Source of the DNA: an uncultured Opitutales bacterium
Lineage (GTDB): Bacteria; Verrucomicrobiota; Verrucomicrobiia; Opitutales; UBA9783
DNA length: 64,000 bases
Assembly (NCBI GenBank): GCA_944389435.1
Contig: CALXMI010000052.1
Coordinates: forward strand, 544 to 64,543
Reading direction: 5' to 3'
Part shown: one piece after another, positions 16,617 through 44,594 of the stretch
How positions within the stretch are numbered: the stretch's first letter is position 1
Layout of the letters: each line of letters opens with the position of its first letter
Position numbers and translations under genes: made by a program
Notes under the pieces: model-generated
What the model was told of the DNA's origin: nothing
The model's input: only the letters and a program-made list of their open reading frames with translations
The model's database searches: none

Positions 16617-17231
16617 ATGGACCGTCGTATTCATCATCTGCCTTTTCATAAAAAAATCGCGATCGCGTTCGTATACATACTGTTACGCTTTTGGTACGCG
16701 TCTCTTCGATTAAAAATGGATAAAACCACGCAAGAGGTTATGTCCCAAAAACCACAGGTTCCTTGCATTTTTTATTTTTGGCATCATAACCTTTTTGTAG
16801 CTCCAATGGTCCGAAAAATGCGTGGTAAGCGTCTCATGTATGGCCTTATGAGCGCTAGCAAGGACGGTGCTTGGCTAGAAGCACTCGTACGTTGGTTTCG
16901 CGTCGAGGCTATTCGTGGCTCAAGTTCTTGGCGAGCCTCTAAAGCTTTGCAAGAAATGGAACAATGCACGCATACGGTTTGTGACATCGTTATTACGCCC
17001 GATGGCCCCAAAGGTCCACGTTGCCAAAGCAAGCCAGGATCGATAAAATGGGCTTTCAATCAGCAAGCTAAGATCATTGGCATGAATTTTCAGATGCGTA
17101 AAGCTTGGTATTTAAAGTCCTGGGATCACTTTTGTATACCCATGCCCTTCTCCTCCATCTACCTAAAAGCACGCTATTTAGAAGCCAAAACTCCGGAAGT
17201 GCTTACCCATCAAATCGATACCTTTTTATGA
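16617..17231 (+). CDS. DUF374-family (lysophospholipid-acyltransferase-like) protein
   Basis: 204 aa. 'FYFWHHNLF', 'SASKDGAWLEALVRWFRVEAIRGSS', 'ITPDGPKGPR'. Confidence 0.75.
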   Translation: MDRRIHHLPFHKKIAIAFVYILLRFWYASLRLKMDKTTQEVMSQKPQVPCIFYFWHHNLFVAPMVRKMRGKRLMYGLMSASKDGAWLEALVRWFRVEAIRGSSSWRASKALQEMEQCTHTVCDIVITPDGPKGPRCQSKPGSIKWAFNQQAKIIGMNFQMRKAWYLKSWDHFCIPMPFSSIYLKARYLEAKTPEVLTHQIDTFL

Positions 17232-19529
17232 AGTAGGCGTAACCTCTAACGTCTTCAATCGTTGGATGTTGTTGGGAAGCCCTACCACAAAAACGCAGTC
17301 GCCATTTTTGAAAATATCGGTAGGTGTAAGCTGATCCAAACGCTGTGTCTTCCTTTGAATACTCAATACATTGACACCAAAGCGATTGCGAATGTTAGCT
17401 GAAGCCAAGGTTTCATTCAAGAAAGGATGCTTGTCGGTAATAACAATTTGATCAAAATCAAATTCGGCACTGTTGTTGATCGGTACGGTTCGTGCTTGTA
17501 CCAGAAGACGTTCTGCCGCATTCAGTTGTGAAAAGGTGCCCAAAAGCAGCAGCGCATCTCCTGGGAAAAAAATATAATCCGGTGGTATGGTATCGCAAAA
17601 AAAACCTTCACGGCCAATACCTAATAGCGTTACCTTGGTTTGTTCACGCAAGCGACAATCCTTTAAGGTTTGCCCTACAAATTTAGAAGAAGGTGCTAAA
17701 ACGACCTGCCGTGAGAGTACTTCCTGTGGATGCCTTTTAGACACGACTTTTATCATGGCTTGACGACGTTTTTCATTCTCTTGCTCAAGCTCATTAGAAA
17801 AGCTTTCCAAAAACTTAATTTCAAACTGGCTATTCAAATTACGAATACGTTTAAAAAATGCAAAACTCAAAATAATACCGATAAAGCTCAATAAAATAAC
17901 GGGCATGTATGTGGGCAAGTATTTTGCAGAAGAAATTAAGAATAGCCATGTAAAGACAAAAATCGCAATCGTAGCAACAAACAGCTGAAATATTTGATAA
18001 AGCGCCGCATGTTTTGTAAGGTTCACAAACAATCCGCGCAAGGTACTTTTACAGACGGTTAGGAAAATAAGATTTAAGTTTCTAACAACGCTGGTCATAA
18101 ACGGCAATGCAAGACATAAGGCAAGCATCGAAAGGCCTCGCTGTATCCAAATAAGGTAGGGTTCCGTTCGAGGAATCGGGTGGACAAGCAAAAATCCACA
18201 AAGCCAATTATTGCACCAAACAATTGCGTTTATAAGACAAAAATGGATAGCAATTTTGATCATAGGTTTCTTGACGATATTTACGAAACGGCTGCCCGAC
18301 AAGTGATTTTGGATAGATATCAAAATGCTTTGATAAACATTGCAAAGAGACACAAAAACGTGCGGAATCATTCGCTCACAACACCTCAAAAGCACTTCTT
18401 CTTTAGCACATAACACGTTTACGGCAATGATCGTGAACAACGACGTTCCAACGGTAATCGCCATCAGCTGGCCATCATCGATCCCCAGATTTTTAGCCAA
18501 TGCCGCAATGACGAAACTAAACTCACCTATTTGCGACTTGGGCAAAGAAGCTCGAAAGGCGACGCTTGGTTTCTGTCCACTTAAGAAAAAACCGAACCAT
18601 ACACTGCAAAATTGGCCAATAATAACGACCACCGTTAGCAGACAAATGAGCCATCGATATTGCCATAAAAGCTTGGGATCTATCAACATCCCTATTGAGA
18701 CAAAAAACACAGCTGTAAACACATCACGTATGGGGGCAATCATACTTTCCAATCGATGAATAACGGTCGTGTTTGAAAAAATCGCACCCGCCAAAAAAGC
18801 ACCCAATGCAGTTGAGTAACCTTTGGACATTTCACTAAGCAGCAAGATTAGGCCCACGACGCAAACGTGAATAATTTCTTCATGCGGAATTTTTTTCAAT
18901 AAGCCAATAAAACGCTGCGCCATAAGTCGTCCGAATATGAGCATACTCGCAATAAAAACGGTAATCCAAAAAATCAAATTAAAGCAGTCTACGAAGTTAA
19001 ATTGCCCATGCCTTAGATTGGATAAAACAACCAATAAAACGACCGCAAAGATATCTTCCAAGACGGCAACTCCTATTGTAAATTGAGCAAAAGGCTGTTT
19101 GAGTGCATTTTTATTTTTGAGAATAGGAATTGCTACCATACTGGAACTAATAGAAAAAATAGCTCCTAAAAAGGTTCCCAATAAAGGATTCCATCCCAAT
19201 AAATTCGCCACCAATGCACCTAAGAAAAACGAGGTAACCGCTTGTAAAAACATAGCCAAAACGGACGGAAATAGCGTTTGCTTTAATTTTTTCAGGTCAA
19301 ACTCCAATCCGATACAAAACATCAAAAAAATGACCCCCAGCTCACTTATACTGTGAATAGAAGCTTGGTCGTGAATCACAAGATTGGATGTGGTGTAAGG
19401 CCCTACAATGATACCTGAAAGCAAATATCCTAAAATGCTGGGCCAGCGTAGTATCGCAAAAACAATGGACACTAAGCTTGCTGTTACAACAATGGTTGTT
19501 AAGTCTTGTATAAGAAAATCTGTTTCCAT
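17226..19529 (-). CDS. CPA2 (Kef-type) cation:proton antiporter with an extra membrane domain and two C-terminal RCK_C (TrkA-C) domains
   Basis: The ATG at 19529 ('METDFLIQDL...') is preferred over the track start at 19646, which would overlap mreB. It has a Na+/H+-exchanger-like core, about 4 further hydrophobic segments, and then two repeats of the RCK_C pattern ('...GQTLKDCRLREQTKVTLLGIGREG...', '...NETLASANIRNRFGVNVLSIQRK...'). Confidence 0.85.
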   Translation of the reverse strand: METDFLIQDLTTIVVTASLVSIVFAILRWPSILGYLLSGIIVGPYTTSNLVIHDQASIHSISELGVIFLMFCIGLEFDLKKLKQTLFPSVLAMFLQAVTSFFLGALVANLLGWNPLLGTFLGAIFSISSSMVAIPILKNKNALKQPFAQFTIGVAVLEDIFAVVLLVVLSNLRHGQFNFVDCFNLIFWITVFIASMLIFGRLMAQRFIGLLKKIPHEEIIHVCVVGLILLLSEMSKGYSTALGAFLAGAIFSNTTVIHRLESMIAPIRDVFTAVFFVSIGMLIDPKLLWQYRWLICLLTVVVIIGQFCSVWFGFFLSGQKPSVAFRASLPKSQIGEFSFVIAALAKNLGIDDGQLMAITVGTSLFTIIAVNVLCAKEEVLLRCCERMIPHVFVSLCNVYQSILISIQNHLSGSRFVNIVKKPMIKIAIHFCLINAIVWCNNWLCGFLLVHPIPRTEPYLIWIQRGLSMLALCLALPFMTSVVRNLNLIFLTVCKSTLRGLFVNLTKHAALYQIFQLFVATIAIFVFTWLFLISSAKYLPTYMPVILLSFIGIILSFAFFKRIRNLNSQFEIKFLESFSNELEQENEKRRQAMIKVVSKRHPQEVLSRQVVLAPSSKFVGQTLKDCRLREQTKVTLLGIGREGFFCDTIPPDYIFFPGDALLLLGTFSQLNAAERLLVQARTVPINNSAEFDFDQIVITDKHPFLNETLASANIRNRFGVNVLSIQRKTQRLDQLTPTDIFKNGDCVFVVGLPNNIQRLKTLEVTPTS

Positions 19530-19614
19530 TTTTTGAAAAGATGTATTCTTTCGCTTGACGAATATAATGAACTCGTTAGAGTATGAGACAGGTACTTTTA
19601 TATATAAAACACTT

Positions 19615-20640
19615 ATGTCGCTATTTGGCAAGCTATTTTCTTTCATGTCTCACGACATTGGTATCGACCTGGGAACTGCAAATACACTTGTTTTTGCCAA
19701 AGATCGTGGGGTTGTTCTCAGTGAGCCAAGCGTTGTTGCAATCTACAACAAAACACGCAAGGTAAGAGCCGTGGGGTTGGAAGCCAAAAAAATGTTGGGA
19801 CGTACGCCCGGCAACATTACCGCCTTAAGACCCATGAAAGACGGCGTTATTGCTGACTTTGAAGTAACAGAGGCCATGCTGCGCTACTTCATCAATAAGG
19901 TTTGTCGCAATCACCGATTCGTTCCTCCTAGGGTTGTCATTGCAGTACCGTCTGGCATCACCGAAGTTGAACGTCGTGCCGTTAAGGAATCGGCTATACA
20001 TGCAGGCGCAAGAGAGGTTTTGTTGTTGCAAGAACCCATGGCAGCTGCCATTGGTGTAGGGTTACCGATTGATGAGCCTGCTGCAAGTATGATTGTAGAC
20101 ATTGGTGGAGGCACAACCGAAGTAGCCATTATTTCTTTGTCCGGTATGGTGTTCACTCGAAGCCTACGTGTAGGTGGCGATCAAATGGACATGGCGATTG
20201 CAAATCATCTGAAAAAAACGTACAATTTGTTGATCGGTGAACGGATGTCCGAAGACATCAAAATAGCGATCGGATCGGCCACTCCACTTGAGGAAGAACT
20301 TTCGATTGAGGTAAAAGGCCGCGATACGATCTCGGGGTTGCCGCGAACGGTTGTCATTTCGTCTTTAGAAATTCGCGAGGCATTAATGGACTCCATTTCA
20401 TCGATTGTTGAAGTAGTTCGACAGGCATTAGACCGTTGCCCTCCTGAATTGGCAGCTGACTTAGTTGATCGAGGTATTGTGTTAGCAGGCGGTGGTTCAC
20501 TGATTCGTAACTTGGACCGAAAGATTAGCGAAGCAACCCATTTGCCTGTCGTTGTTGCAGAGGATCCTTTACGGGCCGTTGCCAACGGAACCGGTGCTGT
20601 CCTACAAAATTTAAGCTTCTGGCTAAATGAGGAATGTTAA
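19615..20640 (+). CDS. mreB: Rod-shape protein MreB
   Basis: 'MSLFGKLFSFMSHDIGIDLGTANTLVF', 'VDIGGGTTEVAIIS'. The ATG at 19615 is preferred. Confidence 0.96.
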   Translation: MSLFGKLFSFMSHDIGIDLGTANTLVFAKDRGVVLSEPSVVAIYNKTRKVRAVGLEAKKMLGRTPGNITALRPMKDGVIADFEVTEAMLRYFINKVCRNHRFVPPRVVIAVPSGITEVERRAVKESAIHAGAREVLLLQEPMAAAIGVGLPIDEPAASMIVDIGGGTTEVAIISLSGMVFTRSLRVGGDQMDMAIANHLKKTYNLLIGERMSEDIKIAIGSATPLEEELSIEVKGRDTISGLPRTVVISSLEIREALMDSISSIVEVVRQALDRCPPELAADLVDRGIVLAGGGSLIRNLDRKISEATHLPVVVAEDPLRAVANGTGAVLQNLSFWLNEEC

Positions 20641-21459
20641 TTGGTTCATAAAAAGCATGCATCTTTTTGGGCCTATTCTATCCTTCTGTTTGTACTTTGG
20701 CTATTTGTTTTTCCATTAACCGTCAGAGAGCGCATTCGGGATACGTTTTTTTCGGCCCAAGTCGTTATTTTCAATTTGTTGCCCAATCTTTCCAATCTTC
20801 AGCAAGAAATTGCCTTACGCACCTACCCCAAAGATTGGTGGATAAAAAGGACGCAGGAACTCCTTCGTGAAAATGCTTACTTAAAGCTTCAGCTGCAGGA
20901 ACATAGGGACGTTCACGATTTTGCAAACCGAATTCTGAAGCTGAATCAAATTCAATTAGGCGAGGATTTTCGCGGCATATGTGCGCGTGTTATCTTTAGA
21001 GCTTATGAAACTTGGAATCAAACCCTTGTTATCGATAAAGGCACGCAAGACGGCATAAGTGTAGGCCAAGGTGTTATCTGTACAGGCGGCATCGTAGGGC
21101 GTATTTCTCACGTAAAAAATCATCTGGCTTTTGTGGAATTGGCCACATCGCCTCAATTCCGCATGTTTGTCCATCTGGAAAAAGATACGCAACCGCATTT
21201 ATTAAAGGGTGTTGCTAACGTTAGAGGCGGTTTTAAAGGTAAAGCCCATTTACTAGACATCGTCAGCGATAATCCAGGAGATTATCCCTGCCGTATTGAA
21301 ACAAGTAGCCTTGGCCATCAGTTCCCTGATCATATTTATGTCGGCCAGCTAAAAAAGTTGAAAAAAAAACATGGTCAATCTTATGGCGTTGTAACTCTTG
21401 GCAACTATTTTCATGATTTGCGTGAAGTAACCGTTCTCATTCCCAACACGCTGCTATGA
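20641..21459 (+). CDS. mreC: Rod-shape protein MreC
   Basis: 272 aa. N-terminal TM, a coiled-coil segment, 'GQGVICTGGIVGRISHV', and position directly after mreB. Confidence 0.85.
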   Translation: MVHKKHASFWAYSILLFVLWLFVFPLTVRERIRDTFFSAQVVIFNLLPNLSNLQQEIALRTYPKDWWIKRTQELLRENAYLKLQLQEHRDVHDFANRILKLNQIQLGEDFRGICARVIFRAYETWNQTLVIDKGTQDGISVGQGVICTGGIVGRISHVKNHLAFVELATSPQFRMFVHLEKDTQPHLLKGVANVRGGFKGKAHLLDIVSDNPGDYPCRIETSSLGHQFPDHIYVGQLKKLKKKHGQSYGVVTLGNYFHDLREVTVLIPNTLL

Positions 21460-21932
21460 AGTATTTTCTCCGTTTTTTTTATTTTCTGACCCTTAACTGT
21501 GCCTTTTCCATCCTAACCTTATGGGCAGGAAGCGCCCTAAACCTCCATGTTTACCTAGGCGGTTTTTGGGTGTTTTTGTCAGTTTGTTTGTTGCCTAAAT
21601 TTGAAGGCCTCTGGAGCGTTTTTTTCTTATGCCTGCTTTCAGAAGCATTATATGTACAGTCGTTTTTTGGTATCGTCTCCTGTTGCTTGGCCAGTTCCGT
21701 CTTATTCTTTTCAAAAGAAATTTGGAAGAACATCTGCATCTGTCGATTAAGATTAAGTTGCTTCCTGTTCTCGCTTATGGGACATATCCTATTTCTTCTC
21801 TTCCACCTTGGATTACAGTCTGGTTTTACAAAAAAATTATTGTATTATCTGCCATCGGTGCTCGTGTTAAATGTCCTACTAGCCTTTATCGTACCCTATT
21901 GGCTTAAATTCCAACGTCGGTATTTTGTATGA
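21456..21932 (+). CDS. mreD: Rod-shape protein MreD (by position and topology)
   Basis: 158 aa polytopic membrane protein overlapping the mreC stop by 4 nt. Confidence 0.6.
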   Translation: MKYFLRFFYFLTLNCAFSILTLWAGSALNLHVYLGGFWVFLSVCLLPKFEGLWSVFFLCLLSEALYVQSFFGIVSCCLASSVLFFSKEIWKNICICRLRLSCFLFSLMGHILFLLFHLGLQSGFTKKLLYYLPSVLVLNVLLAFIVPYWLKFQRRYFV

Positions 21933-22759
21933 ACTTAGAAAAGTATCAAGCCTTAGGAAATGATTATTGGGTATACGATCCCAGCTTTAATACAGAGCCT
22001 TTAACCCTTGAAACCGTTCGAGCGCTTTGCAATCGGCACTATGGCCTAGGTGGCGACGGCGTCCTGGTAGGCCCCAAAAGTATTTTTGGCGGTGCCTTTT
22101 CCGTGGAAATTTTCAATGCCGATGGTACGCTTGCCGAAATAAGTGGCAATGGTTTAACGATTTTTTCAAAATATTTGTATAACAAGCATTACGTTAACCT
22201 AGACGAAGACTTTCAAATCATACCATCGGCTTTACGTAAAGTACATGCGGTTTGTTTTCAAAAGGGGACTACCATAGCCTCCAAAATTACGTTTGCTAAC
22301 GGCACCTGTTTAGAAACGATTCCGTATAACGTTCCAAAAGATCTGCAAGAGACGCTCGGCCTACCCAAACAGCTGTTGTTGTATAAAGTGGATATGGGTA
22401 ATCCTCACTGCGTTGTTCCCGTCCATCAACCCACATCTGAGTTAGCGTGCCTGTTAGGGCCCATCTTAGAAAAGCATCCTAGCTTTCCTCAAAAAACAAA
22501 CGTGCAGTTTGTTCAATGGGACGCTTATCTTCCTAAAGCTTCGATAGAAATCTTTGAACGTGGCTCTGGGTACACGCTCGCATCCGGCTCAAGCGCTTGT
22601 GCCGTTGCATGCGTCTATGGCCATTTATTTCAACAGGAAACTTACAGCTTGGAAGTTCATATGCCTGGCGGTACGTTAAACGTTTGCTGCAACCAATCCA
22701 TCATCTCTTTTACAAACATGGCTACACATATTGCATCCGTAAAGATTGTGTCATGGTAA
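21929..22759 (+). CDS. dapF: Diaminopimelate-epimerase homolog with Ser at both catalytic Cys positions
   Basis: 276 aa. 'ALGNDYWVYD', 'FNADGTLAEISGNG', 'MGNPHCVV', 'ERGSGYTLASGSSACAVA'. Codon 72 is AGT (22142-22144) and codon 219 is TCC (22583-22585). E. coli DapF has Cys73 and Cys217 at these positions. Confidence 0.85.
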   Translation: MNLEKYQALGNDYWVYDPSFNTEPLTLETVRALCNRHYGLGGDGVLVGPKSIFGGAFSVEIFNADGTLAEISGNGLTIFSKYLYNKHYVNLDEDFQIIPSALRKVHAVCFQKGTTIASKITFANGTCLETIPYNVPKDLQETLGLPKQLLLYKVDMGNPHCVVPVHQPTSELACLLGPILEKHPSFPQKTNVQFVQWDAYLPKASIEIFERGSGYTLASGSSACAVACVYGHLFQQETYSLEVHMPGGTLNVCCNQSIISFTNMATHIASVKIVSW

Positions 22760-22841: not shown

Positions 22842-23378
22842 ATGAGCGTTGAATGTTTTGTATATCTATTAAGTGGGTTGTTAACGACTTGTGGCCTTCT
22901 TGCGTTTTTTGTCCAAAAAAACCATCAGGATGCCGTTTATCGGTTCCTACGAAAAGACAGTTACGGCCTTATTTTTTTTGCCATTGCATCCATCTGGTTT
23001 ATATGGAAATTGGCCCACTTAGGCGAAGCTGATTTTGGACAATACAAGCAGTGGTTGATCGGCATCTTTTTGTTTGTTTTCATTGGGTGTAGCATTTATT
23101 GGCGCGATTTTTTAATTGTCCGTGCCTTAGCCATGCTATACATGATGCTTGCGGATGTCATGCTAGATATTGGATATATGAGCGACCGCCTCATTCATCC
23201 CTTGACTTCTGCGTTGATTTACATCGGCATTATCATTGCGTTGTTTTTTGGGACCTATCCATATTGGGCGCGAGATGTTTTACCTTATTTGTTTGCAAAA
23301 AAATGCCGTCTTATAAAGATAGCAGGCTGTATTTCGGTATTATATAGCGGCATTCTTTTATGGTTTATTCGGAAGTGA
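22842..23378 (+). CDS. Polytopic membrane protein, unknown function
   Basis: 178 aa with 5-6 hydrophobic segments. No motif recognised. Confidence 0.65.
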   Translation: MSVECFVYLLSGLLTTCGLLAFFVQKNHQDAVYRFLRKDSYGLIFFAIASIWFIWKLAHLGEADFGQYKQWLIGIFLFVFIGCSIYWRDFLIVRALAMLYMMLADVMLDIGYMSDRLIHPLTSALIYIGIIIALFFGTYPYWARDVLPYLFAKKCRLIKIAGCISVLYSGILLWFIRK

Positions 23379-23956
23379 AAAACTTTTTAATGGTATTAAC
23401 AGGACCTTCTGGAAGCGGTAAAACAACGCTATGTAGCCGCCTGTTGGAACATTTTAAGAACACACAGCGCGTTATTACAACCACAACGCGCTTGCCTCGT
23501 CCAGGGGAAATCGACGGTGTGGATTATCATTTTGAAACGCCAGAAAATTTTGAAAAACGATTAGAAAACGAAGAATTTTTTGAATACGCCAAGGTCTATG
23601 ATCGCTATTATGGTGTTTCAAAAAAAGCTATTTTGGATGAAGGCCTTGCCGGACGAGATCTGGTTATTTGTTTGGATGTTCAAGGTGCCCAAACGTTAAA
23701 AGCAAAGTTTTGTGTGTCTACAAATGCGCGTAAATTAATAACGATCTTTGTCTGTCCGGCAAGTTTGGATGAATTAAAACATCGCTTGATTACACGCGGA
23801 ACCGACGATGCAGAGACGATCCAAAAACGCCTTCAAATGGCTGAAAAGGAGTTGCGTACTTTGTCTCAATTCGATTATCATCTGTGTAGTCAAGACAAAG
23901 AGCACGACTGGCTTTGCTTGCAGCACATTTATTTTGCAGAGAAAATCCATATTTAA
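23360..23956 (+). CDS. gmk: Guanylate kinase
   Basis: 'LTGPSGSGKTTL', 'VDYHF', 'FEYAKVYDRYYG'. The start is uncertain (ATG at 23360 or ATG at 23390). Confidence 0.9.
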   Translation: MVYSEVKNFLMVLTGPSGSGKTTLCSRLLEHFKNTQRVITTTTRLPRPGEIDGVDYHFETPENFEKRLENEEFFEYAKVYDRYYGVSKKAILDEGLAGRDLVICLDVQGAQTLKAKFCVSTNARKLITIFVCPASLDELKHRLITRGTDDAETIQKRLQMAEKELRTLSQFDYHLCSQDKEHDWLCLQHIYFAEKIHI

Positions 23957-26216: not shown

Positions 26217-26693
26217 TCAAATACGTAACATAGGATTAAGATTGGTGTCAACCCTTAACGCTTGTTCCATTACAGTACCATTGTTTTGTGTAAATTCAAG
26301 ATAGATTTTCTGTACATTTCGGACCGCGGCAATAAAGAGGTCGAAGGCTTTTATAAATTTATACTCGTCCAAATCCTCTATGAGAAACCTTCGGTACAGG
26401 AGTATTCGTTGCGAATCATCTTCAAGGGCCAATGTACTTCCGTAAGTCTTATGTCCCCAAAGATTTAACCTCAGAAAAAACTCTAATGATTTCTTTATGT
26501 CCGTCGAATCCGTTAAAGTCACAATAGGCGCACAAAAATAAACATAGGCGCTTGCCTCCGGCACATTAACAACATATTCTTGGTCATCGCTATCACGTGC
26601 TGCAAACGTTCCATTCGGATTTAAATGGAAAATCTTACCGCCCGTAAGCCCATATTGACGAACCCAAACATTAACTTGTTCTTTTGTTGTCAT
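26217..26693 (-). CDS. CesT/SycE/YbjN-superfamily (type III secretion chaperone-like fold) protein
   Basis: 158 aa. The pattern '...AYVYFCAPIVTL...FFLRLNLWGHKTYGSTLALEDDSQRILLYRRFLIEDLDEYKFIKAFDLFIAAV' matches the class I chaperone / YbjN layout. Its ATG overlaps the clpC TGA (ATGA at 26690-26693). Confidence 0.6.
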   Translation of the reverse strand: MTTKEQVNVWVRQYGLTGGKIFHLNPNGTFAARDSDDQEYVVNVPEASAYVYFCAPIVTLTDSTDIKKSLEFFLRLNLWGHKTYGSTLALEDDSQRILLYRRFLIEDLDEYKFIKAFDLFIAAVRNVQKIYLEFTQNNGTVMEQALRVDTNLNPMLRI

Positions 26694-29278
26694 TTTACAG
26701 ACACCTCTTTACAATGTAGTTGCTTTTTTGAAGTTGCCTGTTTCTTTTTAGATTTCTCGCTTGAACTTGAAAAACGTAATAGATTGTTATCTAACGAAAA
26801 AGTCACCCGTTGCCCTGATTTTATTTTACCTTCCAATAAGCCGTCTGCCAACGCATCTTCGACGTGCCGTTCGATGGTACGCCTAAGTGGCCGTGCTCCC
26901 ATTTTAGCATCAAACCCTTTATCAACAAGAAATTTTTTAGCTTCCCGATCCAAACAAAGTTCAACTTTGTTCTCAGCAAGACGTTCCCGTAACTTATCCA
27001 GCTCAAGGTCAACAATAGCCAGCATATGCTCTCGCGTCAAAGGCCTAAAGATAATAGTCTCGTCGATACGGTTCAAAAACTCGGGCTGAAACGCCGATTT
27101 TAACGCCTCTTGAACATTCGACTGTATCTGCTCAAATCTTGCCGTTTGTGAGGGTATACCAAATCCTAAACCTGTATCTTTTTGCAACGCTTGAGCCCCC
27201 ACATTGGAAGTCATAACAATGATAGTGTTCTTGAAATCAACACGACGCCCCAATGCATCCGTCAGATGGCCTTCTTCCAAAACCTGCAAAAGAATTTGAA
27301 TAACATCCGGATGCGCTTTTTCTATCTCGTCAAAAAGCACAATTGAGTAAGGCTTTCTACGAACAGCTTCTGTCAACTGCCCACCGTCTTCATGGCCAAC
27401 ATAACCCGGAGGCGAACCAATCAGCCTTGCGACCGTATGCTTTTCCATGTATTCAGACATATCCAGTTGAACAATGGCTTCCGGACGTCCAAAAATCTGC
27501 TCTGCCAAAATCTTAATGAGATACGTTTTTCCAACACCCGTAGGCCCTAAGAACATGAAAGAACCTATCGGTCGCTGGGGATCGCGAAGGTTGGCACAAG
27601 ATCGTTTTAAGGCCCTGGTAAGCGACGAAATGGCTTCTTGTTGGCCCACCACACGTTCTTCTAAAATCTTGTCCAAATTCAAAAATTGTTGCAACTTATG
27701 CGTGCGCATGCGTTCAATAGGAACACCGGTCCAATCAAAAACAATATGCTGCAAGGTTTCTTCCTTTACTAGAATCTTTTTTGTTTTTGAATTTCTCTTC
27801 CAATTTTCTAACAATTGGCTCCGTTCAGCAATCAACGTCTGCTCTTTATCGCGCCAACGAGCCGCTTCTTCAAATTTTTGATCGTTTATGGCTGTAAATT
27901 TTTTCTGATTTATAGCCTGAATAGCTTGATCTAAGGTTTCTGTCGAAGGCGCTAACATCGCACCCATGATCTTGGTTCGAGCACCCGCTTCATCCAGTAA
28001 ATCAATCGCCTTATCAGGGAAAACGCGATCGGTAACGTAACGCTGCGCAAGACCAACGGACTGCTCTAAAATAGCATCCGAATAGCGAACATTATGGAAA
28101 TCCTCGTAATGCGACTTAATACCTTCTAAAATCTTTAGAGTGTCTTCTGTAGAAGTTGGCTCGACTAAAATGGCTTGAAATCGACGATTTAAGGCCATAT
28201 CCTTCTCAATATAGCGTCGATACTCATCCAATGTGGTTGCGCCAATACACTGCAGTTGTCCACGAGCTAACACCGGTTTTAGTATGTTAGAAGCATCCAT
28301 GGAACCTTCCGCCGAACCCGCTCCCACGATGGTATGAAGTTCATCCAAAAACAGAATAATATTCGAACCTTTAACTTCGTCCATGAGGTTCTTCAAACGT
28401 TCTTCAAATTGTCCACGATACTTCGTGCCCGATAACAGAAGGGCCAAATCCAAGTTGTATATCGACTTATTAACCAATTCTGCAGGTACTTTTCCTGCGA
28501 CTATATGCTGAGCCAATCCCTCAACCACAGCCGTTTTACCAACACCAGCTTCTCCAATCAGCACCGGATTATTCTTGGTTCGGCGGCACAGGACCTGTAT
28601 CAAACGTTGAATCTCTTTCTCACGCCCAATAACAGGATCAAGCTCTTTATTTCTTGCTTTTTGCGTCAAATCCAAACCGAAATTCTTTAAAATAGAAGGT
28701 TTCGTTTTGCTTGTCCCTAACGAAAAAAACGAATCGTCGTTATCAAAATCGTCGTCTATCGAATCGTCATCGTTATACAAATCCTCATCGTCGTCATCGT
28801 CATTTTTATTGGGCATCATTTCGGCCAAAATTTCATGCTTACAGGTCTGAGGGTCAATATCAAGCACCTTCAAAATTCGAGCCCCTAACCCCTTGCCTTC
28901 TTCCAATAAACCTAACAAGAGATGTTCGGTCCCAATGTAAGTGTGCTGAAAATCTTTAGATATCTTCTCTGCAAATTTAAAAACTTTCTGTACGCGTGGC
29001 GTAACTGGAACGTCGGTTGAATTTTTTGATATTTTTTCAACGCAAGCGTAATCCACCTCCTCGGTTTTTCCAGACGCAACATGTTGCAACAACGTATCGT
29101 GAATGGTGTCAATATCCAAGCCAATCTTTTGAAGAACCCGAACGGCAATACTCTGCTTGAGCTCTAAAAGCCCTAACAATAAATGTTCGGTCCCTAAGCA
29201 CTTATGTTGAAACTTCAAAACAAATTTTTTGGCTAAAACAAAAACTTGCTGTGCCTTGGGTGTTAAATTATGAAACAT
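26690..29278 (-). CDS. clpC: ATP-dependent Clp protease ATP-binding subunit ClpC
   Basis: 862 aa. Two Clp-N repeats ('[10 protein letters not shown]' x2), Walker A '[15 protein letters not shown]' and '[15 protein letters not shown]', Walker B 'ILFLDELH' and '[11 protein letters not shown]', UVR-like '[12 protein letters not shown]', and a ClpP-loop candidate 'GLGFG'. Confidence 0.95.
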
Positions 29279-30344
29279 AGCTGCCTCCTTTCACTTTTAA
29301 GAAAAAAGGATCGTCTATTTTTGAAAAATAGGCACGCAAAACATCTGCTCGGACTTTGTCTATTGTTAAAACGTCCTTGCTAAAGAATTCTTTCAAGCAA
29401 ACGGACGACATAGATTGCCAAAGCCTAAGAACGGCACGACGTTTTTTATTAGAAATAAATCCCATATCTATGGCCATTAAAACAATCGAAAGTAAGTTCA
29501 TAGACTCCTCGTAAGATATTTCATAACAACGGCCCAATAACCCTAACGAACGACTGATACTATCTTGTAAAAGTGTTATATTATCCTTTGCCACCACCTC
29601 ACGTGCCCGATGTTCTAACTGGCACAATCGTTGCGCCATGTTGTTCACGTGATCTAAGAGGGTGTTTTCATCGCCCCCCAACGCGTCTAAATTGGACAAA
29701 AAGAAAAGATGACCCATTATTTTATCCTTATCCAGGTGGGCTGGGAGCAAACTTAACTGTAGCTCTTGTGTAGCTTCTAAAAGGGTCGGCAGCTTTTTTA
29801 AAAAACAAAGGGCTGGCAAATGCAGATACGTTTCCGCCACAAGCCCACAACCTAAATCGTGCGGGTTGCTGGTAAAGTACCCCCATGTAGGATCAAAGGC
29901 GTAAGTCAAATTTTGTTCCAACAAAGAATCTAACGCGTCCAATTTTTTCCACATCGTTTTAAGTTGCAAACGAGACAAAGTAAGCTGTAACTGTACATGA
30001 TCACCATTGTTAGCAATAACCTGCACGTGTTGCTTGGGATGATACCATATAACGGTCTCGTCACACGGAAAGTCCAGGTAGAACAGGTTTTTTAGAAGCT
30101 CTTTTTCGTTAGAATTGCAATCACTCCACCTAAGCTCAACACATTCGTCTAAAGGCAAAATAGGCGCGAAAGCCTTATACAAACGTTCCACGATCGCCTG
30201 TTTTTGAGCCGAAGATGCTTGACTCGAAAATGGAATATTTTCGATATTACGTGATAAGCGCACACGATTCCCCATCCACACGGAAGCATTATCTACTTTC
30301 GTTTTTGTTTCCCATATATCACGAATCTCTTGCCTTATACTCAT
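29268..30344 (-). CDS. mcsB: McsB-like ATP:guanido phosphotransferase homolog with degenerate catalytic motifs (probable pseudokinase)
   Basis: 358 aa. The N-terminal 'GNRVRLSRNIENIPF' and 'TYLHLPAL' are McsB-like. However 'NEEDH' is 'NNGDH', 'CP(T/S)N(L/V)GTGLRA' is 'NPHDLGCGLVA', and 'RG..GE' is 'LPAHLDKD'. It overlaps the clpC start by 11 nt. Confidence 0.8.
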   Translation of the reverse strand: MSIRQEIRDIWETKTKVDNASVWMGNRVRLSRNIENIPFSSQASSAQKQAIVERLYKAFAPILPLDECVELRWSDCNSNEKELLKNLFYLDFPCDETVIWYHPKQHVQVIANNGDHVQLQLTLSRLQLKTMWKKLDALDSLLEQNLTYAFDPTWGYFTSNPHDLGCGLVAETYLHLPALCFLKKLPTLLEATQELQLSLLPAHLDKDKIMGHLFFLSNLDALGGDENTLLDHVNNMAQRLCQLEHRAREVVAKDNITLLQDSISRSLGLLGRCYEISYEESMNLLSIVLMAIDMGFISNKKRRAVLRLWQSMSSVCLKEFFSKDVLTIDKVRADVLRAYFSKIDDPFFLKVKGGSYVS

Positions 30345-37911: not shown

Positions 37912-37958
37912 CCTCGAAGGAAACTCCTGCAGGTGTTTCCTTCGAGGTGTGTTTGTTT
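37912..37958 (+). terminator. Rho-independent terminator of gap
   Basis: A perfect 13-bp stem, CCTCGAAGGAAAC (37912-24) / GTTTCCTTCGAGG (37935-47), with a 10-nt loop, followed by 'tgtgtttgttt'. Confidence 0.85.
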
Positions 37959-38071
37959 ACGGGCACAGTTTTCTATCCATTTCCTACCTTACAACAGGTT
38001 ATGTTGATGGATCCATTTTTCGTGATAATTTTATTTACTCATCATTCGTTTTTCTCTATAATCAAGAGGCA

Positions 38072-38797
38072 ATGTTGAGGAGTCGAAAAAAAGGATTTAC
38101 GTTGGTTGAAGTGATTATTGCAGGAACCTTGTCGACTATTGTGTTGGCAGGCATCATGCAGTTTTTTTTAGCTCAACTCAATCAATACCGTCTTATTTCT
38201 GGGTATAATAAGTTAAATGAGTCATTGCGAATTTTCGGAAAATTCTTTGAAAAAGACGTACACAATGCATTGTCGTTTTATGTATTTTCATCAGAAGGAA
38301 ACTCTACGACTTCGGGAACGGCTTTGAATTTTACAAAAGCAAATATGTCGTCATACACCTTTCCTAAGGTTGGCAATTGTCTACTGCTGATTGAAGAACG
38401 CGGTATGATTTCTGGAGGCCGAGGCACGCTCTATTACGTAGGTTCATCCATCGTTAGAAATGGACAGCTGTGTTATCCGCTTTACAGGACGCTTGTTACC
38501 TTTAATACATCCAATAAGATCGCAGAGACGGCATCTAGTTTTTCCAACCTTCCTGTTGCCTACTTAAAGCCAAATGCCGATGAAACGGGGCCTGTAACCT
38601 TTTTCAGTTACGGTGGATCCACAGGGATTTTTTACTTAAATTCGCGAAAAATGATCGATACTGAGGGCATTTACACCCCTGGATGCCGTCATGGAGTTTA
38701 TTTTAAAGGCACTATGCTTGAACCAGGCTTACATGGGCAATCCGCTGAGTTGACGACGCAGTTTTGTTTTTTCTCGCGCAATCCAAGATTCCTGTAA
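38072..38797 (+). CDS. Prepilin-type (class III signal) minor-pilin-like protein, GspJ/PilW-sized
   Basis: An ATG at 38072 is preceded by 'aagagg'. 'MLRSRKKG/FTLVEVIIAGTLSTIVLAG' has Gly-1 and Glu+5. The track start (GTG at 37949) lies inside the gap terminator and is rejected. Confidence 0.8.
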   Translation: MLRSRKKGFTLVEVIIAGTLSTIVLAGIMQFFLAQLNQYRLISGYNKLNESLRIFGKFFEKDVHNALSFYVFSSEGNSTTSGTALNFTKANMSSYTFPKVGNCLLLIEERGMISGGRGTLYYVGSSIVRNGQLCYPLYRTLVTFNTSNKIAETASSFSNLPVAYLKPNADETGPVTFFSYGGSTGIFYLNSRKMIDTEGIYTPGCRHGVYFKGTMLEPGLHGQSAELTTQFCFFSRNPRFL

Positions 38798-38838: not shown

Positions 38839-40014
38839 ATGTTGTTTTTTTGCAAGGTGTTCAGCACGCATGAAATCTGGAAGTGGCGTTGCGTCTTTGC
38901 ATCTTCACATCGTCAATGTTTACGCAAGTTGCTGGGCAGAAACGACTACTGCAGTCAGGTTTTTAGCGTAGGCGATATTTTTGAAAAAATTTTTAAAAGG
39001 CTTGATTTACCCCCCATTCAAGAGAAGCATTGGCTTATCTTTTTTGAAAAATTACGCGCTCAACTTTCTACATCCATATCTCTGATAAATGCTTTACGGC
39101 AAATGGCGGATATGCCTTTTAACCATTCTTTGCAGTATTTTATCGCCAAGGCCATTGATCGTCTTTCGAACGGCTTTTACATGTATCCCTTATTGAGCGA
39201 TCCGCGATTAAACTTGGGCCAGCAGTCGATAAAGCTTTTGCAATCGGCGGAAGTCGGCGGTTATCTGCCGCAAGCCTTAGAACGACTGATAGAGCTTATG
39301 CATCTACAGCAAAAAATCCGAAAGCAAATGCTACAGAGTCTTATTTATCCAACCTGCGTTTTAGTGACCATCGTTGTATTTTTACTACTGATGAGTTCTT
39401 TTTTACTCCCTCAGTTTGAGGCATTTTTTATCCAACAAAGCATACCGATAAATGATTTTTTGAGCTTTTTATTCCACTCAAACCGCCACTTAGGCAAAGT
39501 TTTTATGATCGCCGGTGTAGGTTTTTGCGGGTTGTATCTCTGGATGAAGACTAAAAAAATTTCTGTACAAAATGGACTTAATCGTCTCTTAAGCCATTGG
39601 TTCCCGTCTTTTAAGTATACACTGTTCGCAATGAATTTAGCTGAGCTTTTAGAAAACCAAATACCGCTACTTGAATGTTTAACCTTAGCTGCGGAAAATT
39701 TGCCCAAAAAGTTCTCTGTCGATAAAATGTCTGTTGCTTTATCGAATGGCATACGGCTGTCTATGGCTTTAGAAGACTTGCCTGAGGATTTTTCTCACGT
39801 CTTACAAACATCTGAGGTTGACAATCGATTGATACAAAATCTACGGCAATTATCTGCGGATTATTACAAGCGTTACGAAAATCAGTTGCTAGGGTTATCC
39901 AAATGGCTCGAACCAGTTAGCATTTTGCTCATGGCATTGATTTTGTTTTTAGCAGTCGCCTGTTTGTTTTACCCCCTACTGCAGGTTTTTCAGTCAATGA
40001 AGTTCGAGCTATAA
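38839..40014 (+). CDS. gspF: GspF/PilC-family inner-membrane platform protein
   Basis: 391 aa. It has two T2SSF-like repeats, each ending in TM segments ('...LIYPTCVLVTIVVFLLLMSSFLLPQF', '...LEPVSILLMALILFLAVACLFYPLLQVF'). Confidence 0.85.
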   Translation: MLFFCKVFSTHEIWKWRCVFASSHRQCLRKLLGRNDYCSQVFSVGDIFEKIFKRLDLPPIQEKHWLIFFEKLRAQLSTSISLINALRQMADMPFNHSLQYFIAKAIDRLSNGFYMYPLLSDPRLNLGQQSIKLLQSAEVGGYLPQALERLIELMHLQQKIRKQMLQSLIYPTCVLVTIVVFLLLMSSFLLPQFEAFFIQQSIPINDFLSFLFHSNRHLGKVFMIAGVGFCGLYLWMKTKKISVQNGLNRLLSHWFPSFKYTLFAMNLAELLENQIPLLECLTLAAENLPKKFSVDKMSVALSNGIRLSMALEDLPEDFSHVLQTSEVDNRLIQNLRQLSADYYKRYENQLLGLSKWLEPVSILLMALILFLAVACLFYPLLQVFQSMKFEL

Positions 40015-40095
40015 TCACCGTAAAGTGTCATGAATTTTATTTGATTCTTACTTTAGGTATTGCAAATTATTTCATATACATTAGAATTTATTATA

Positions 40096-42822
40096 ATGGA
40101 CATTCGTTATACCCGAAGGAAGCGACACCGTGGAAATGTCGTTTTTACTTCATTGATTTTTTTATTTATCTTAACAGGAACGTTACGCCTATGCGTTAAC
40201 AAAACGCTTCTTGAAAGTCGCCAGACATCCCTATTTATTCAAGAAACGCAAGCATATTACCTATCCGAAAATTTGATGTCCCTAGGTCGCGACTACGTTT
40301 ATCAAATGATGCAAAATCCTAGAGAAACCAACATTTTCTTAGGTACAACTGCGTTTTACGACAAAGATAAATCGATAACAGCAAACGGCATCATTGATTT
40401 CAATGGATCGCTCAGCAAGCAGCAAATTGTACCCGACGATTTCCCGTTACAAATAGAAGATAATTCTTGGAGCATAAAAGGCGGTCCTGTTTTCTGGCAA
40501 AGCAACAACAAAAACATCAACGACGAACGCTATTTATCGGAAATTTACCTTATAGGCAAATTCGATGTCAATTCTGCTTTCATGAACGATTGGACCTATC
40601 GTATGGTACAAACCATAGAAATCGAACGTAATCCTCTGTGCGATTTTTCCCTTTATGCCGAAGGAGATTTGGCTATACGAGTACAAAATGTTACAGACAC
40701 CACTTTTGAAAAACCTGTACAAATCAACGGAAATGCACGTTATTATAGGATACACACACAAGATCAAGCTAAAGGCTTCGGTCGTAGTACAAGCAGCTTC
40801 AATATTGCAGGACATTTTCTAAGAATTAACGAAAACGATACAACATCCACCTTTAGCTCTATAAAAATTCCAGATAAGTATTGTTTGTACGACAATAGCT
40901 CCTTTTACGATAACTTTAAAAACCCTTACTTGCCTAAAAGTGCTGGCAAGTATTATTCTTCTTTTCATCTTCTCGACAAGGAACTTTTAAACTATTACAG
41001 TAATGCAACCAATCCTGCTTATAAAAACTATGAACATTATATCTATAAAACCTTTAAAGGCAAATTTTTGACACGCAGCCGTATTTATCGCCCATGTGGG
41101 TTTGATCCAGAAAACGACTGGGGCTATTGGTGGCCGATCGAAGATGGCGGAAAATCGGCTAATGCTCGTCTGTTGGACTACGTGACCGGCATGCATAACC
41201 TAACCGACTCTTCGAAAGTAAGCAGTTCTAGGATCTTTACCAACCGAATAGGAAACATTAAAACTGCATTTAGTTCTTTGAGAGGATTAAATGAGTATCA
41301 ATTGACCGAAAAAGCTCGATTGGTTGAAATGCAAAAATTATGCAATCATCCGCATCTTCAATTAAAACTATTAATTTCCTTCTCCGAAAGCACCGGTATA
41401 TCCACTACAGTCGACACCTTTTACACACGCTATGGGTTAAGTTGTTGCAAGTCAGCTGAAAATAATACCTTTGCTCCTAATCCCATCTTTCATCCAGCAA
41501 AAGATAATATCTTTATCAGTCGTTACTATGCTCTGATAAATCAGAAAAAGTATATTTATGATGCAAGTATGCGTTACTCTGAAGATGAAGGTGTTGCTTT
41601 TTATAAAACAAATGAAAATAACATACCTACAGCAAGTAACAGCATCGAATCTAATTACTATTTTAATAAAATAGACAATGGAAAATTATGTTGTCATACA
41701 AAAAGTAAAGACCCAACCTACACGGGTGAAGTTTATTACAATACAACCTATAACACCACACCAACTTCTTCAACAGATATTAATTTCGGCCCACATAAGC
41801 TCGTTGAATCGACTGAAAATTATAATCACTGGGAACCAGATGCAACCGCCACACCCGTTGTGCCAGATTCCAATACGCCCATTTTCATGTACGACCGAAA
41901 TCGTGCAAAATGGATACAAATTATCGACATTGATGTTGCTAAATTATGTAACATAAGCTCAGACAATTGGAAAATTTACAATCATACTTTAGCCGTTAAC
42001 ACATATTGGGTTGGAGCAAACCTAGGGCCACGTAATTATACAGTAGGCACAAACGATATTAGAAAAAATTATATCACAAATCGAACAAATGAAACCTCTT
42101 TTACACCTAAAAACACTAACGTTATTGATATTGGCGTTCGCCTCATTAACGCATCAAAGATTCCAACAGGTGGCTTAACGATTTGGTGCCCTTATCCGCT
42201 CTATATTAAAGGGGATTTTAATACTACCGATACACAGCCAGCTTTCATCGTAACTGATTCCTTAACTGTTTTAACGAATTCCTGGGCAGATTGGCGAAGC
42301 ATGGTAGATCCCTACGATAGTTACTTCAACAACATGACAGGACTGTATTCCTATCGCTCACAAACACCACCTACCATCAAAGCCCATATTATGACTGGCC
42401 GCACCCATCCGAATTACTGGCTCACCAGCGATAAATCTAAAATTTCTCCGGACGGTGGCCATCGCGAAGCCATTCGTACACTAGAACCCATGAACGACGT
42501 TATACCCTTGTACGGCTCATTGCTGTTGCCGTATTATTGCAAAGAACAATGGGAGCCACCGATCAACTTTCAAAAATGGGAAACGGCTGGTTTCTATCCC
42601 TGTTGTTTAGAGCTTCACTCCTTAGACACAAAGATCCCAGCTGGAATGACGTTTTACCACAAGGTTAATCGTGGCCGTAAAACTCAGGCCATTGGCCCAA
42701 CTACGTACAGCATCCTCGAAGGCAGTACACTTTGGAGTAAGGATTGGTCAAATATCAGCAACGTATTTTCATCCTACCACAACGCTTTGCCAAATTACCT
42801 AAAATACGAAACCGCCCCGTAG
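40096..42822 (+). CDS. 908-aa protein with a PilX-N-like uncleaved N-terminal anchor; otherwise unknown (candidate filament tip/cap protein)
   Basis: The ATG at 40096 gives 'MDIRYTRRKRHRGNVVFTSLIFLFILTGTLRL' (basic stretch plus hydrophobic helix, no G/F cleavage motif). The body is rich in N, Y and T. The C-terminal region contains 'GGLTIWCPYPLYIKGDFNTTDTQPAFIVTDSLTVLTNSWADW'. Confidence 0.8.
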   Translation: MDIRYTRRKRHRGNVVFTSLIFLFILTGTLRLCVNKTLLESRQTSLFIQETQAYYLSENLMSLGRDYVYQMMQNPRETNIFLGTTAFYDKDKSITANGIIDFNGSLSKQQIVPDDFPLQIEDNSWSIKGGPVFWQSNNKNINDERYLSEIYLIGKFDVNSAFMNDWTYRMVQTIEIERNPLCDFSLYAEGDLAIRVQNVTDTTFEKPVQINGNARYYRIHTQDQAKGFGRSTSSFNIAGHFLRINENDTTSTFSSIKIPDKYCLYDNSSFYDNFKNPYLPKSAGKYYSSFHLLDKELLNYYSNATNPAYKNYEHYIYKTFKGKFLTRSRIYRPCGFDPENDWGYWWPIEDGGKSANARLLDYVTGMHNLTDSSKVSSSRIFTNRIGNIKTAFSSLRGLNEYQLTEKARLVEMQKLCNHPHLQLKLLISFSESTGISTTVDTFYTRYGLSCCKSAENNTFAPNPIFHPAKDNIFISRYYALINQKKYIYDASMRYSEDEGVAFYKTNENNIPTASNSIESNYYFNKIDNGKLCCHTKSKDPTYTGEVYYNTTYNTTPTSSTDINFGPHKLVESTENYNHWEPDATATPVVPDSNTPIFMYDRNRAKWIQIIDIDVAKLCNISSDNWKIYNHTLAVNTYWVGANLGPRNYTVGTNDIRKNYITNRTNETSFTPKNTNVIDIGVRLINASKIPTGGLTIWCPYPLYIKGDFNTTDTQPAFIVTDSLTVLTNSWADWRSMVDPYDSYFNNMTGLYSYRSQTPPTIKAHIMTGRTHPNYWLTSDKSKISPDGGHREAIRTLEPMNDVIPLYGSLLLPYYCKEQWEPPINFQKWETAGFYPCCLELHSLDTKIPAGMTFYHKVNRGRKTQAIGPTTYSILEGSTLWSKDWSNISNVFSSYHNALPNYLKYETAP

Positions 42823-43916: not shown

Positions 43917-44594
43917 TCAACGTACATAACGCTCTAAAACCTTGCCTAACACAAGCCATTGTTTAGGCTCAGGCTTTTCAAGAACAACTTGCGTACCCAT
44001 GAAATTAAAAACAAGCCGTATTAAGGCCAGATGCAGCCCTGTCGAAATTGGGCTATTCGTTGACTTCTTTACGGACGACTTCAAATCTTCCAAATATACC
44101 CAATGCGGACACGGAATCCATAGATCATCACCTAAAATATCAAAAAAAGTAAAATGTGAATGAGTTTGAATTTGCTGTGGCCTTAAAAACTTTGTTGTCG
44201 CTAATACCGATAGGTAAGGCCCATATTCACCTTGAATCCTAAAGTTCGTAAACGTCTTTTTGCCATTTTTGTTTGGATAAGAACGCTGCTTGCAAGCATC
44301 CCAAGCAATCGACAGGTCGCAAGTCCAATCCTTCGGACCGGCTGTATGTCTTTTCCCTACGCACGCAAATGTAAAAGTTAATTGATCCGAACCGTAAGCG
44401 TTTTTCAAGCAATCACGCGCATCTAAAGTTTTTGCCAACAACAAGAAACCGTTAACATCCGCATCCAATGCATAAATGCAGGAAAATTTTGATCCCCGAC
44501 GATCCCTCTTAAACTGTTGCAAAACAGCTTCTGTGGAAACGCCAGGTTTTTTATCCACACAGACCCATTCGGGTGTCTCGGATAAAATTTCCAT
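43917..44594 (-). CDS. RluA-family pseudouridine-synthase-like protein with a divergent motif II
   Basis: 225 aa. 'WVCVDKKPGVS', 'IYALDADVNGFLLLAKT' (versus 'HRLDxxTSG'), 'LRPQQIQTH' (versus 'GRxHQIRxH'). The catalytic Asp is retained. There is no S4 domain. Confidence 0.65.
   Translation of the reverse strand: MEILSETPEWVCVDKKPGVSTEAVLQQFKRDRRGSKFSCIYALDADVNGFLLLAKTLDARDCLKNAYGSDQLTFTFACVGKRHTAGPKDWTCDLSIAWDACKQRSYPNKNGKKTFTNFRIQGEYGPYLSVLATTKFLRPQQIQTHSHFTFFDILGDDLWIPCPHWVYLEDLKSSVKKSTNSPISTGLHLALIRLVFNFMGTQVVLEKPEPKQWLVLGKVLERYVR

Follow-up and report, generated by a model that had tools for sequence, protein, structure and literature searches.

In a 64,000-nucleotide stretch of DNA from an uncultured Opitutales bacterium of the Verrucomicrobiota (contig CALXMI010000052.1 of GenBank assembly GCA_944389435.1, positions 544 to 64,543 of the forward strand; hereafter the window), the cell-wall elongation genes mreB, mreC and a putative mreD are followed by a gene for a member of the diaminopimelate (DAP) epimerase family, DapF, whose product has serine at both positions where a catalytic cysteine is expected (Table 1). 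The DapF-fold racemases are textbook enzymes that employ a thiolate/thiol pair to remove and return the α-proton of an amino acid, and databases name the proteins that carry the serine pair (Ser/Ser proteins) ‘diaminopimelate epimerase’. The comparisons described below led us to propose that the window protein is probably a working DAP epimerase whose acid/base chemistry relies on hydroxyl groups.

A sequence-only reading of this locus had recognised a DapF homologue along the full length of the open reading frame (ORF), with both catalytic cysteines replaced by serine, and profile and structure comparisons agree on both points. The protein matches the NCBIfam DapF family (TIGR00652; 151.7 bits, cutoff 114.65, over residues 1-268) and, in two domains, the Pfam family DAP_epimerase (PF01678; E 1.9e-34, 118.7 bits against 34.7). 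In HMMER alignments to solved DapF structures, the window motif EISGNG lies under Q/M-CGNG and TLASGSSACA lies under T-x-ACG-[ST]-GACA, so Ser72 occupies the position of Cys73 and Ser219 that of Cys217; the engineered H. influenzae variants C73S and C217S (2q9h, 2q9j) could be aligned with the window protein residue by residue. The assignment was open to the objection that a proper alignment might bring cysteines to the catalytic positions, and the same Ser/Ser register was kept when 384 sequences, E. coli DapF (from NC_000913.3) among them, were aligned together. The retained cysteine of the motif SSAC, which had been taken as support for the register, is Cys224 and aligns with E. coli Cys222. 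Both serines are specified by ordinary codons, AGT and TCC, and selenocysteine or recoding at positions 72 and 219 was rejected on this basis. The window protein does not have the catalytic thiol pair of DapF; all of the DAP-binding residues are present, as are the equivalents of His159 and Glu208.

Table 1. Features of the window discussed in the text (window coordinates; residue numbers are those of the window protein unless canonical DapF is named)
Feature	Position	Strand	Remarks
Ser/Ser DapF-family gene (dapF)	21929..22759	+	ATG start; 276 aa; Pfam PF01678 and TIGR00652
Tyr13 codon (TAT), GNDY	21965..21967	+	clade-specific; Phe13 in canonical GNDF
Ser72 codon (AGT)	22142..22144	+	position of catalytic Cys73
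His160 codon, GNPH	22406..22408	+	equals His159; kept
Glu210-Arg211 codons, ERG	22556..22561	+	equals Glu208-Arg209; kept
Tyr215 codon (TAC), GYTLAS	22571..22573	+	clade-specific; Glu213 in canonical GETxAC
Ser219 codon (TCC)	22583..22585	+	position of catalytic Cys217
Na+/H+ exchanger with TrkA_C domains	17226..19646	-	divergent from mreB
mreB	19555..20640	+	MreB_Mbl, E 5e-143; NF010539, 508.9 bits; ORF listed from TTG 19555
mreC	20641..21459	+	PF04085, 88.9 bits (cutoff 28)
mreD-like membrane protein gene	21456..21932	+	4-nt overlaps with mreC and dapF; assigned by position
178-aa membrane protein gene	22842-23378	+	downstream of dapF, co-directional
guanylate kinase (gmk)	23360-23956	+	co-directional, downstream of the 178-aa membrane protein gene
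CesT-family (type III secretion chaperone) gene	26217-26693	-	between cysS and clpC
ClpC-type ATPase, then ATP:guanido phosphotransferase	26690-30344	-	McsB-like arginine kinase
ORF	37949-38797		no Pfam match
T2SSF	38839-40014		type II/IV secretion
920-aa ORF	40060-42822	+	no Pfam match
T2SSE	42799-43902		type II/IV secretion
ORF	43917-44594		no Pfam match

An AlphaFold2 model of the window protein (pLDDT 96.3, pTM 0.92) has the two-domain, pseudosymmetric fold of DapF, with the catalytic positions at facing helix N-termini. The central helices of the model begin at residues 73 and 220, so Ser72 is predicted to cap the N-terminus of the first of them; in the model, the two serines cap both central helices, as the cysteines do in DapF. 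The top 22 fold matches among Protein Data Bank (PDB) entries are all DapF (best 9mro_A, TM score 0.85), and no natural Ser/Ser member turned up among the solved structures matched by sequence or by fold. Canonical DapF (TIGR00652, PF01678), represented by E. coli b3809, H. influenzae 1GQZ and 2GKE, and Anabaena 9MRO, is 27-30% identical to the window protein over its full length and has in common with it the fold, the DAP-binding residues and the His159/Glu208 pair, whereas the Ser/Ser proteins have neither thiol (C73S, C217S) and carry additional, fixed co-substitutions. Other enzymes of this fold were set aside as being farther away than DapF in sequence or structure: the O-ureidoserine racemase DcsC (7vdy) matches the window protein with E 4e-15, compared with 4e-30 for DapF, and the Foldseek E values of HisR/CntK, proline racemase and PhzF/YddE-type proteins (1e-12 to 1e-13 for CntK, HisR, PhzF and proline racemase) compare with 1e-23 for DapF. 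The engineered enzymes 2Q9H and 2Q9J, which are among the best sequence matches and have serine at a catalytic position, contain single substitutions in a thiol-tuned site that were made to slow catalysis (PMC11602996), whereas in the Ser/Ser proteins both positions are replaced and the pocket residues appear to have co-evolved.

The extent of this co-variation was seen when 257 Ser/Ser sequences were compared with 123 Cys/Cys sequences, the latter sample consisting of E. coli DapF and the neighbours of one representative (Actinomycetota and Armatimonadota, with no proteins from the Planctomycetes-Verrucomicrobia-Chlamydiae (PVC) group). Residues N11, N64, G74, N75, N157, H159, N190, E208, R209 and G218, in canonical numbering, are common to both groups, and these DAP-binding residues and the catalytic His/Glu pair, which have been described previously (PMC5885031; PMC12039745), are each present in at least 98% of the 257 Ser/Ser proteins. 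His159, described as essential for epimerase activity (PMC5885031), is kept by 98% of the Ser/Ser proteins and by 100% of the Cys/Cys proteins; Glu208 and Arg209 are invariant in both, the arginine being the residue that binds the distal centre of DAP (PMC12039745). Alongside the serines, the Ser/Ser proteins have the fixed switches F13Y, C79I, E192Q, E213Y, T219S, G220S and L242M. Position 13, where the equivalent of Phe13 lines the active site (PMC5885031), is Tyr in 98% of Ser/Ser proteins and Phe in 91% of Cys/Cys proteins, and position 213 is Tyr in 90% of the former and Glu in 73% of the latter. By motif and strand position, Tyr13 of GNDY would be the pseudosymmetry mate of His160 in GNPH. 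The window protein departs from the clade consensus at only two conserved residues (G123A and W209F). As far as can be judged from these alignments, the kept pocket and the fixed switches are those of a re-tuned active site, not of a decaying one.

Although the serine substitutions had been presented as the peculiarity of one gene, and the substitutions themselves stand, they are not singular to it. When 5.8 billion proteins were searched, all of the 120 best homologues, down to 36% identity, were Ser/Ser, and an exhaustive HMMER search of 1.84 billion representatives of 50%-identity clusters found Ser/Ser in 141 of the best 150, Cys/Cys in four (the first at ~139 bits) and, in a few, the mixed pairs Ser/Cys, Cys/Ser, Ser/Thr and Ala/Ser. 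A scan of GTDB species genomes, using patterns that did not contain the two serines, yielded at least 582 confirmed relatives, the best 80 loci of which were taken further; Ser/Ser is present in 78 of 79 of these loci, the exception being Blautia hominis (Ala/Ser). By record title, the best 80 comprise 48 Verrucomicrobiota from all major classes, seven Clostridia (Lacrimispora, Hungatella, Blautia and others), six Chloroflexota, four Planctomycetota, two Spirochaetes, two Desulfobacterota, four unclassified records, and one each from Nitrospirota, Acidobacteriota, Bacteroidales, Actinomycetota, Methylomirabilota, Aquificota and Pseudomonas. The closest match to the window protein is 99% identical and lies on a 12-kb ENA metagenome contig (P0001), the GTDB representatives do not include the window's own species, the best match among them being 48% identical, and a Ser/Ser protein is also encoded by the cultured species Opitutus terrae PB90-1 (ACB77154.1, UniProt B1ZZ82). 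It had been asked whether Ser/Ser defines a clade, and it does so in the many-sequence alignment: masking the two catalytic columns does not merge the Ser/Ser sequences with the Cys/Cys sample (E. coli DapF and the neighbours of one representative), and the mixed forms fall inside the Ser/Ser group. In the GTDB loci, position 72 is encoded by AGY in 73 cases and by TCC in five, and position 219 by AGY in 28 and by TCN in 51; since both serine codon families are used, serine identity has been kept across two-step codon switches, a pattern which indicates long-term selection for serine itself. Taken at the level of sequence, the Ser/Ser pair is the hallmark of a large, old and strongly conserved subfamily with co-evolved active-site residues.

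This distribution bears on the proposal that the window gene is decaying in the reduced genome of a host-associated bacterium, with serines that are chance loss-of-function changes. Such decay would be in keeping with a fast-evolving lineage (the nearest relatives outside the species are 57% identical), with a modest G+C content of ~42%, and with the CesT-family gene nearby, which hints at a host-associated lifestyle, but it is exceedingly improbable given that the same two serines and their co-substitutions recur in hundreds of divergent lineages, and that the ORF is complete and uninterrupted, departs from the conserved clade positions at two sites only and has a high-confidence predicted fold. 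A pseudogene or decaying enzyme was rejected on the grounds of clade-wide conservation.

Additional information on function comes from gene fusions and gene clusters, which at the level of the clade associate the Ser/Ser proteins with DAP, lysine or peptidoglycan genes. Ser/Ser domains are fused to LysA (TIGR01048; 409.8 and 360.3 bits, cutoff 297.9), including a LysA-DapF fusion in a metagenome-assembled genome (MAG) of the Chloroflexota, to MurE (TIGR01085, 451 bits against 257) and to alanine racemase (378.8 and 247 bits against 168). Other fusion partners are a GntC/VioD-like aminotransferase, GGACT, a methyltransferase and a glyoxalase-like domain; the multidomain proteins, counting all of these partners, are P0167, P0175, P0198, P0235, P0247, P0264, P0275, P0284, P0162, P0111 and that encoded at L073 300-2636. 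Among the clusters, a Ser/Ser dapF is found in dapF-dapA-dapB order in two Verrucomicrobia MAGs, directly downstream of lysA in a Bacteroidales MAG where a plant-type dapL is divergent (TIGR03542, 613 bits), next to ddl in four Lachnospiraceae and beside a xerC-like gene in one genome. The Ser/Ser proteins resemble canonical DapF in having lysA, dapA, dapB, dapL and murE as pathway neighbours or fusion partners. All-against-all clustering of flank ORFs revealed no universal partner gene at the Ser/Ser loci, only housekeeping genes and shadow ORFs, with dihydroorotate dehydrogenase, RNase R, squalene-hopene cyclase and methyltransferase genes as recurrent neighbours.

Published work on the Verrucomicrobia provides a physiological setting for these associations. 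DAP was detected in hydrolysates of O. terrae cells (PMC5303756), and the reconstruction for the related Lacunisphaera limnophila includes the DapL pathway and one DapF, which may be of the Ser/Ser type (PMC5303756). For Verrucomicrobium spinosum a single dapF is listed, again one that may be of the Ser/Ser type, with a locus tag consecutive with those of dapA and dapB (PMC3390587); in this species no Ddh activity was found, murE was characterised as a meso-DAP-adding ligase, and its complementation was read as use of meso-DAP (PMC3390587).

In the window itself, the gene order is MutS, DUF374, the divergent Na+/H+ exchanger, mreB, mreC, the mreD-like gene, dapF, a membrane protein gene and gmk, and the + strand shows nothing resembling a terminator from mreB to gmk. 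The dapF start codon (ATG, 21929-21931) overlaps the stop codon of the preceding ORF (TGA, 21930-21932) in a 4-nt ATGA, as had been claimed, whereas the identification of that ORF as mreD draws only on position, membrane character and weak similarity: the protein is hydrophobic and multi-pass, matches no Pfam family even when E<=5 is allowed, and is 24% identical (E 2e-10) to the ORF that follows mreC in a Puniceicoccales MAG (L006). As listed, the mreB ORF (from TTG 19555) and the exchanger ORF (from 19646) overlap head to head across 19555-19646; both true starts are probably internal, leaving a short divergent promoter region, because the Pfam matches start at residues 33 and 53, and since that of mreB begins at residue 33 its start is more likely ATG 19615.

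The mreB-mreC-mreD-dapF arrangement, including the 4-nt overlap, is kept in three relatives (L096, L097 and L098), whose DapF proteins are 55-58% identical to that of the window, and the larger MutS-DUF374-NhaP-mreBCD-dapF block is also found in L098 and in part in L097. The description of dapF as co-operonic with mreBCD fits the gene order in the window and in the three nearest relatives checked but not that in three more distant Verrucomicrobia. In the Puniceicoccales MAG, the mreDCB-exchanger block is inverted and dapF comes after the exchanger; in the P0037 lineage, dapF follows a BatD-TPR operon; and in O. terrae, it stands alone. A single inversion of mreD-mreC-mreB plus the Na+/H+ exchanger links L006 3283-8813 to window 17226-22759, with the start of dapF as the breakpoint. 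As it appears from these loci, coupling to the elongation genes is a stable feature of the sublineage, one that fits a role in peptidoglycan synthesis, and because the link is missing in distant Verrucomicrobia it does not explain the Ser/Ser substitution.

The 64-kb window contains no second dapF when searched by tblastn with the window protein, and seeds for LysA, MurE, Alr, DapA, DapB, DapL and Ddl found nothing there. The nearest relatives of the window genome are Puniceicoccales/Opitutia Verrucomicrobia. Elsewhere in the window, a gene for a ClpC-type ATPase with a long acidic insert after its Clp_N repeats is followed by one for a McsB-like arginine kinase, a combination more familiar in Gram-positive bacteria, and three ORFs that have no Pfam match, one of them encoding 920 aa, sit among type II/IV secretion genes (Table 1).

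In the mechanism that we propose, a Ser/Ser DapF would convert LL-DAP to meso-DAP for peptidoglycan and lysine synthesis. The DAP-binding residues, which are unchanged, would hold the substrate between the central helices, at their N-termini, while the hydroxyls of Ser72 and Ser219 abstract and deliver the proton. The clade-only residues Tyr13, Tyr215, Ser222 and Gln193, plus the kept His160/Glu210 pair, would assist the serines, and the closed, desolvated site between the helix N-termini could, together with Tyr13, Tyr215 and His160/Glu210, generate and stabilise an alkoxide. In the window lineage, translational coupling to mreB-mreC-mreD would co-express the supply of meso-DAP with the cell-wall elongation machinery. 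An intact pocket, kept helper residues, serines and tyrosines under strict selection, and a position between DapL and LysA/MurE are features to be expected of a working, re-tuned enzyme and not of a dead protein. We infer catalytic activity, an acid/base function for the serines (or the tyrosines), and the role of the window gene as the sole DapF of its organism. By extension, and more tentatively, the Ser/Ser proteins could form a large, natural epimerase class that is cofactor-independent and thiol-free, with two serines, two clade tyrosines and a His/Glu pair at the active site, that serves as the sole and essential DAP epimerase of the Verrucomicrobiota, many Planctomycetota, Chloroflexota and others.

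Several points weigh against a working epimerase of this kind, and some of them would also suit a DAP-binding paralogue that lacks epimerase activity and acts as a sensor, as a chaperone or channelling partner for MurE or LysA, or as a regulator, while the meso-DAP would come from another enzyme encoded elsewhere, be it a canonical DapF, a Ddh or a pyridoxal 5'-phosphate (PLP)-dependent protein. Both thiols are gone, and engineered Cys-to-Ser mutants of DapF-fold racemases are catalytically hindered (PMC11602996); the earlier statement that such changes cripple epimerisation is valid for thiol-type enzymes with one engineered change but does not transfer simply to this clade. Activity data for any Ser/Ser member were not found in the open-access literature, and the roles of Tyr13 and Tyr215 are proposed from where they lie in the sequence and from what has been published on the pocket. 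Residue 71 of the window protein is Ile, where Lys71 is common in the clade, and most Ser/Ser neighbourhoods consist of uninformative housekeeping genes. The loci were viewed over +/-10 kb, and a gene for a second, canonical DapF, for a Ddh or for a PLP-type DapF2 may lie elsewhere in these genomes. A non-orthologous DapF2 of this PLP type, with an unrelated, alanine-racemase-like fold, has been predicted in Staphylococcus as an alternative for the DAP epimerase step (PMC9026213); it shows that other routes exist and is relevant here only as a possible hidden route in Ser/Ser genomes.

Members from two genera add to these doubts. Blautia hominis KB1 (L046 6001-6846) has Ala at position 72, in the motif KRAGNG, and keeps YTLASGTS at the second site; Ala at the first position also occurs in the cluster representative P0230. 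The Blautia protein is either a natural test of the need for Ser72 or a degenerate copy. In Pseudomonas nicosulfuronedens (L001 7051-10313 and L002), the Ser/Ser gene lies between those for a urea transporter and a symporter of the sodium:dicarboxylate family, far from lysine or wall genes, and looks like an accessory paralogue, possibly horizontally acquired; a further copy, in Pseudomonas sp. 21 (L009), shares 44% identity with the window protein and ranks with its closest matches outside the Verrucomicrobia. Pseudomonas strains presumably have a canonical dapF as well, and the Ser/Ser gene would therefore be an extra paralogue in at least some genomes.

A non-enzymatic role is not without precedent, as E. 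coli DapF is reported to activate RppH non-enzymatically (PMC4227774; the related entry PDB 6d13 is among the fold matches). Nevertheless, we regard the non-catalytic paralogue as unlikely: His159 and Glu208, which are described as essential only for catalysis, are 98-100% conserved, and serine is invariant at both sites across codon families where a pure binder should tolerate Ala or Gly. Both the clusters (dapL/lysA-dapF, dapF-dapA-dapB) and the fusions to LysA assign the protein to the pathway's epimerase step, and single-DapF inventories, cited above, exist for two Verrucomicrobia. Altered chemistry, a non-catalytic role and another source of meso-DAP had all been put forward to explain the serines; altered chemistry in a working enzyme is favoured over a dead or non-catalytic protein because of the conservation and the LysA, MurE, Alr, DapA, DapB, DapL and Ddl fusions and clusters.

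An active enzyme with another reaction or substrate would account for the serines in a different way, by formation of D-glutamate, by one-directional epimerisation, or by β-elimination or dehydration of a substituted DAP analogue. Most PVC bacteria are without MurI, and in Chlamydia trachomatis, another member of this group, a DapF/glutamate racemase (NF038284) is likewise tied to peptidoglycan precursors and supplies D-glutamate (PMC5885031). The fusions to alanine racemase and the ddl clusters would also fit a general supply of D-amino acids for peptidoglycan. However, the chlamydial enzyme keeps and needs both cysteines and has a remodelled pocket and a PLP-dependent racemase activity (PMC5885031), whereas the residues at the reacting and distal centres of DAP are unchanged in the Ser/Ser proteins; membership of the bifunctional family was rejected, as the window protein scores 46.8 bits against the NF038284 cutoff of 350. 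Natural replacement of a catalytic cysteine by a hydroxyl residue is known from EcL-DER, a Thr/Cys Asp/Glu racemase of related fold, and from trans-3-hydroxy-L-proline dehydratase, a member of the proline racemase family and a structural neighbour of the window protein. Both are precedents for two-base racemase scaffolds that remain catalytic after Cys-to-Thr/Ser replacement (PMC8142540; 6r76 is among the fold neighbours of the window protein), and EcL-DER acts in one direction (PMC8142540). In these enzymes only one base is replaced and the reaction is unidirectional or an elimination, whereas in the Ser/Ser clade both bases are serine and the context demands reversible epimerisation. With LysA, DapL and DapA/DapB contexts pointing to DAP itself, a different reaction seems quite unlikely, and DAP epimerisation by a Ser/Ser active site is the function that we favour.

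No mention of a natural cysteine-less DapF was found in the open-access literature, which is not proof that there is none. Mechanistic models, inhibitor design (aziridino-DAP and thiol-reactive compounds) and ideas on redox regulation all assume the cysteines. The conservation of a Ser/Ser form, in settings where a working enzyme would be looked for, points to a possible natural alternative to the two-thiol mechanism. If the conserved Ser/Ser form works, nature has found another chemistry for one and the same scaffold, and a thiol-free class of this kind would escape both DapF inhibitors that are thiol-directed and inactivation by oxidative disulfide formation. If it is inactive, thousands of genomes are misannotated, and the true source of meso-DAP in Verrucomicrobia and other phyla is to be found. 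Either outcome affects the reconstruction of lysine and peptidoglycan pathways and the standing of DapF as a drug target. In the lineage of the window, the coupling of dapF to mreBCD suggests in addition that the supply of meso-DAP is co-regulated with lateral wall synthesis.

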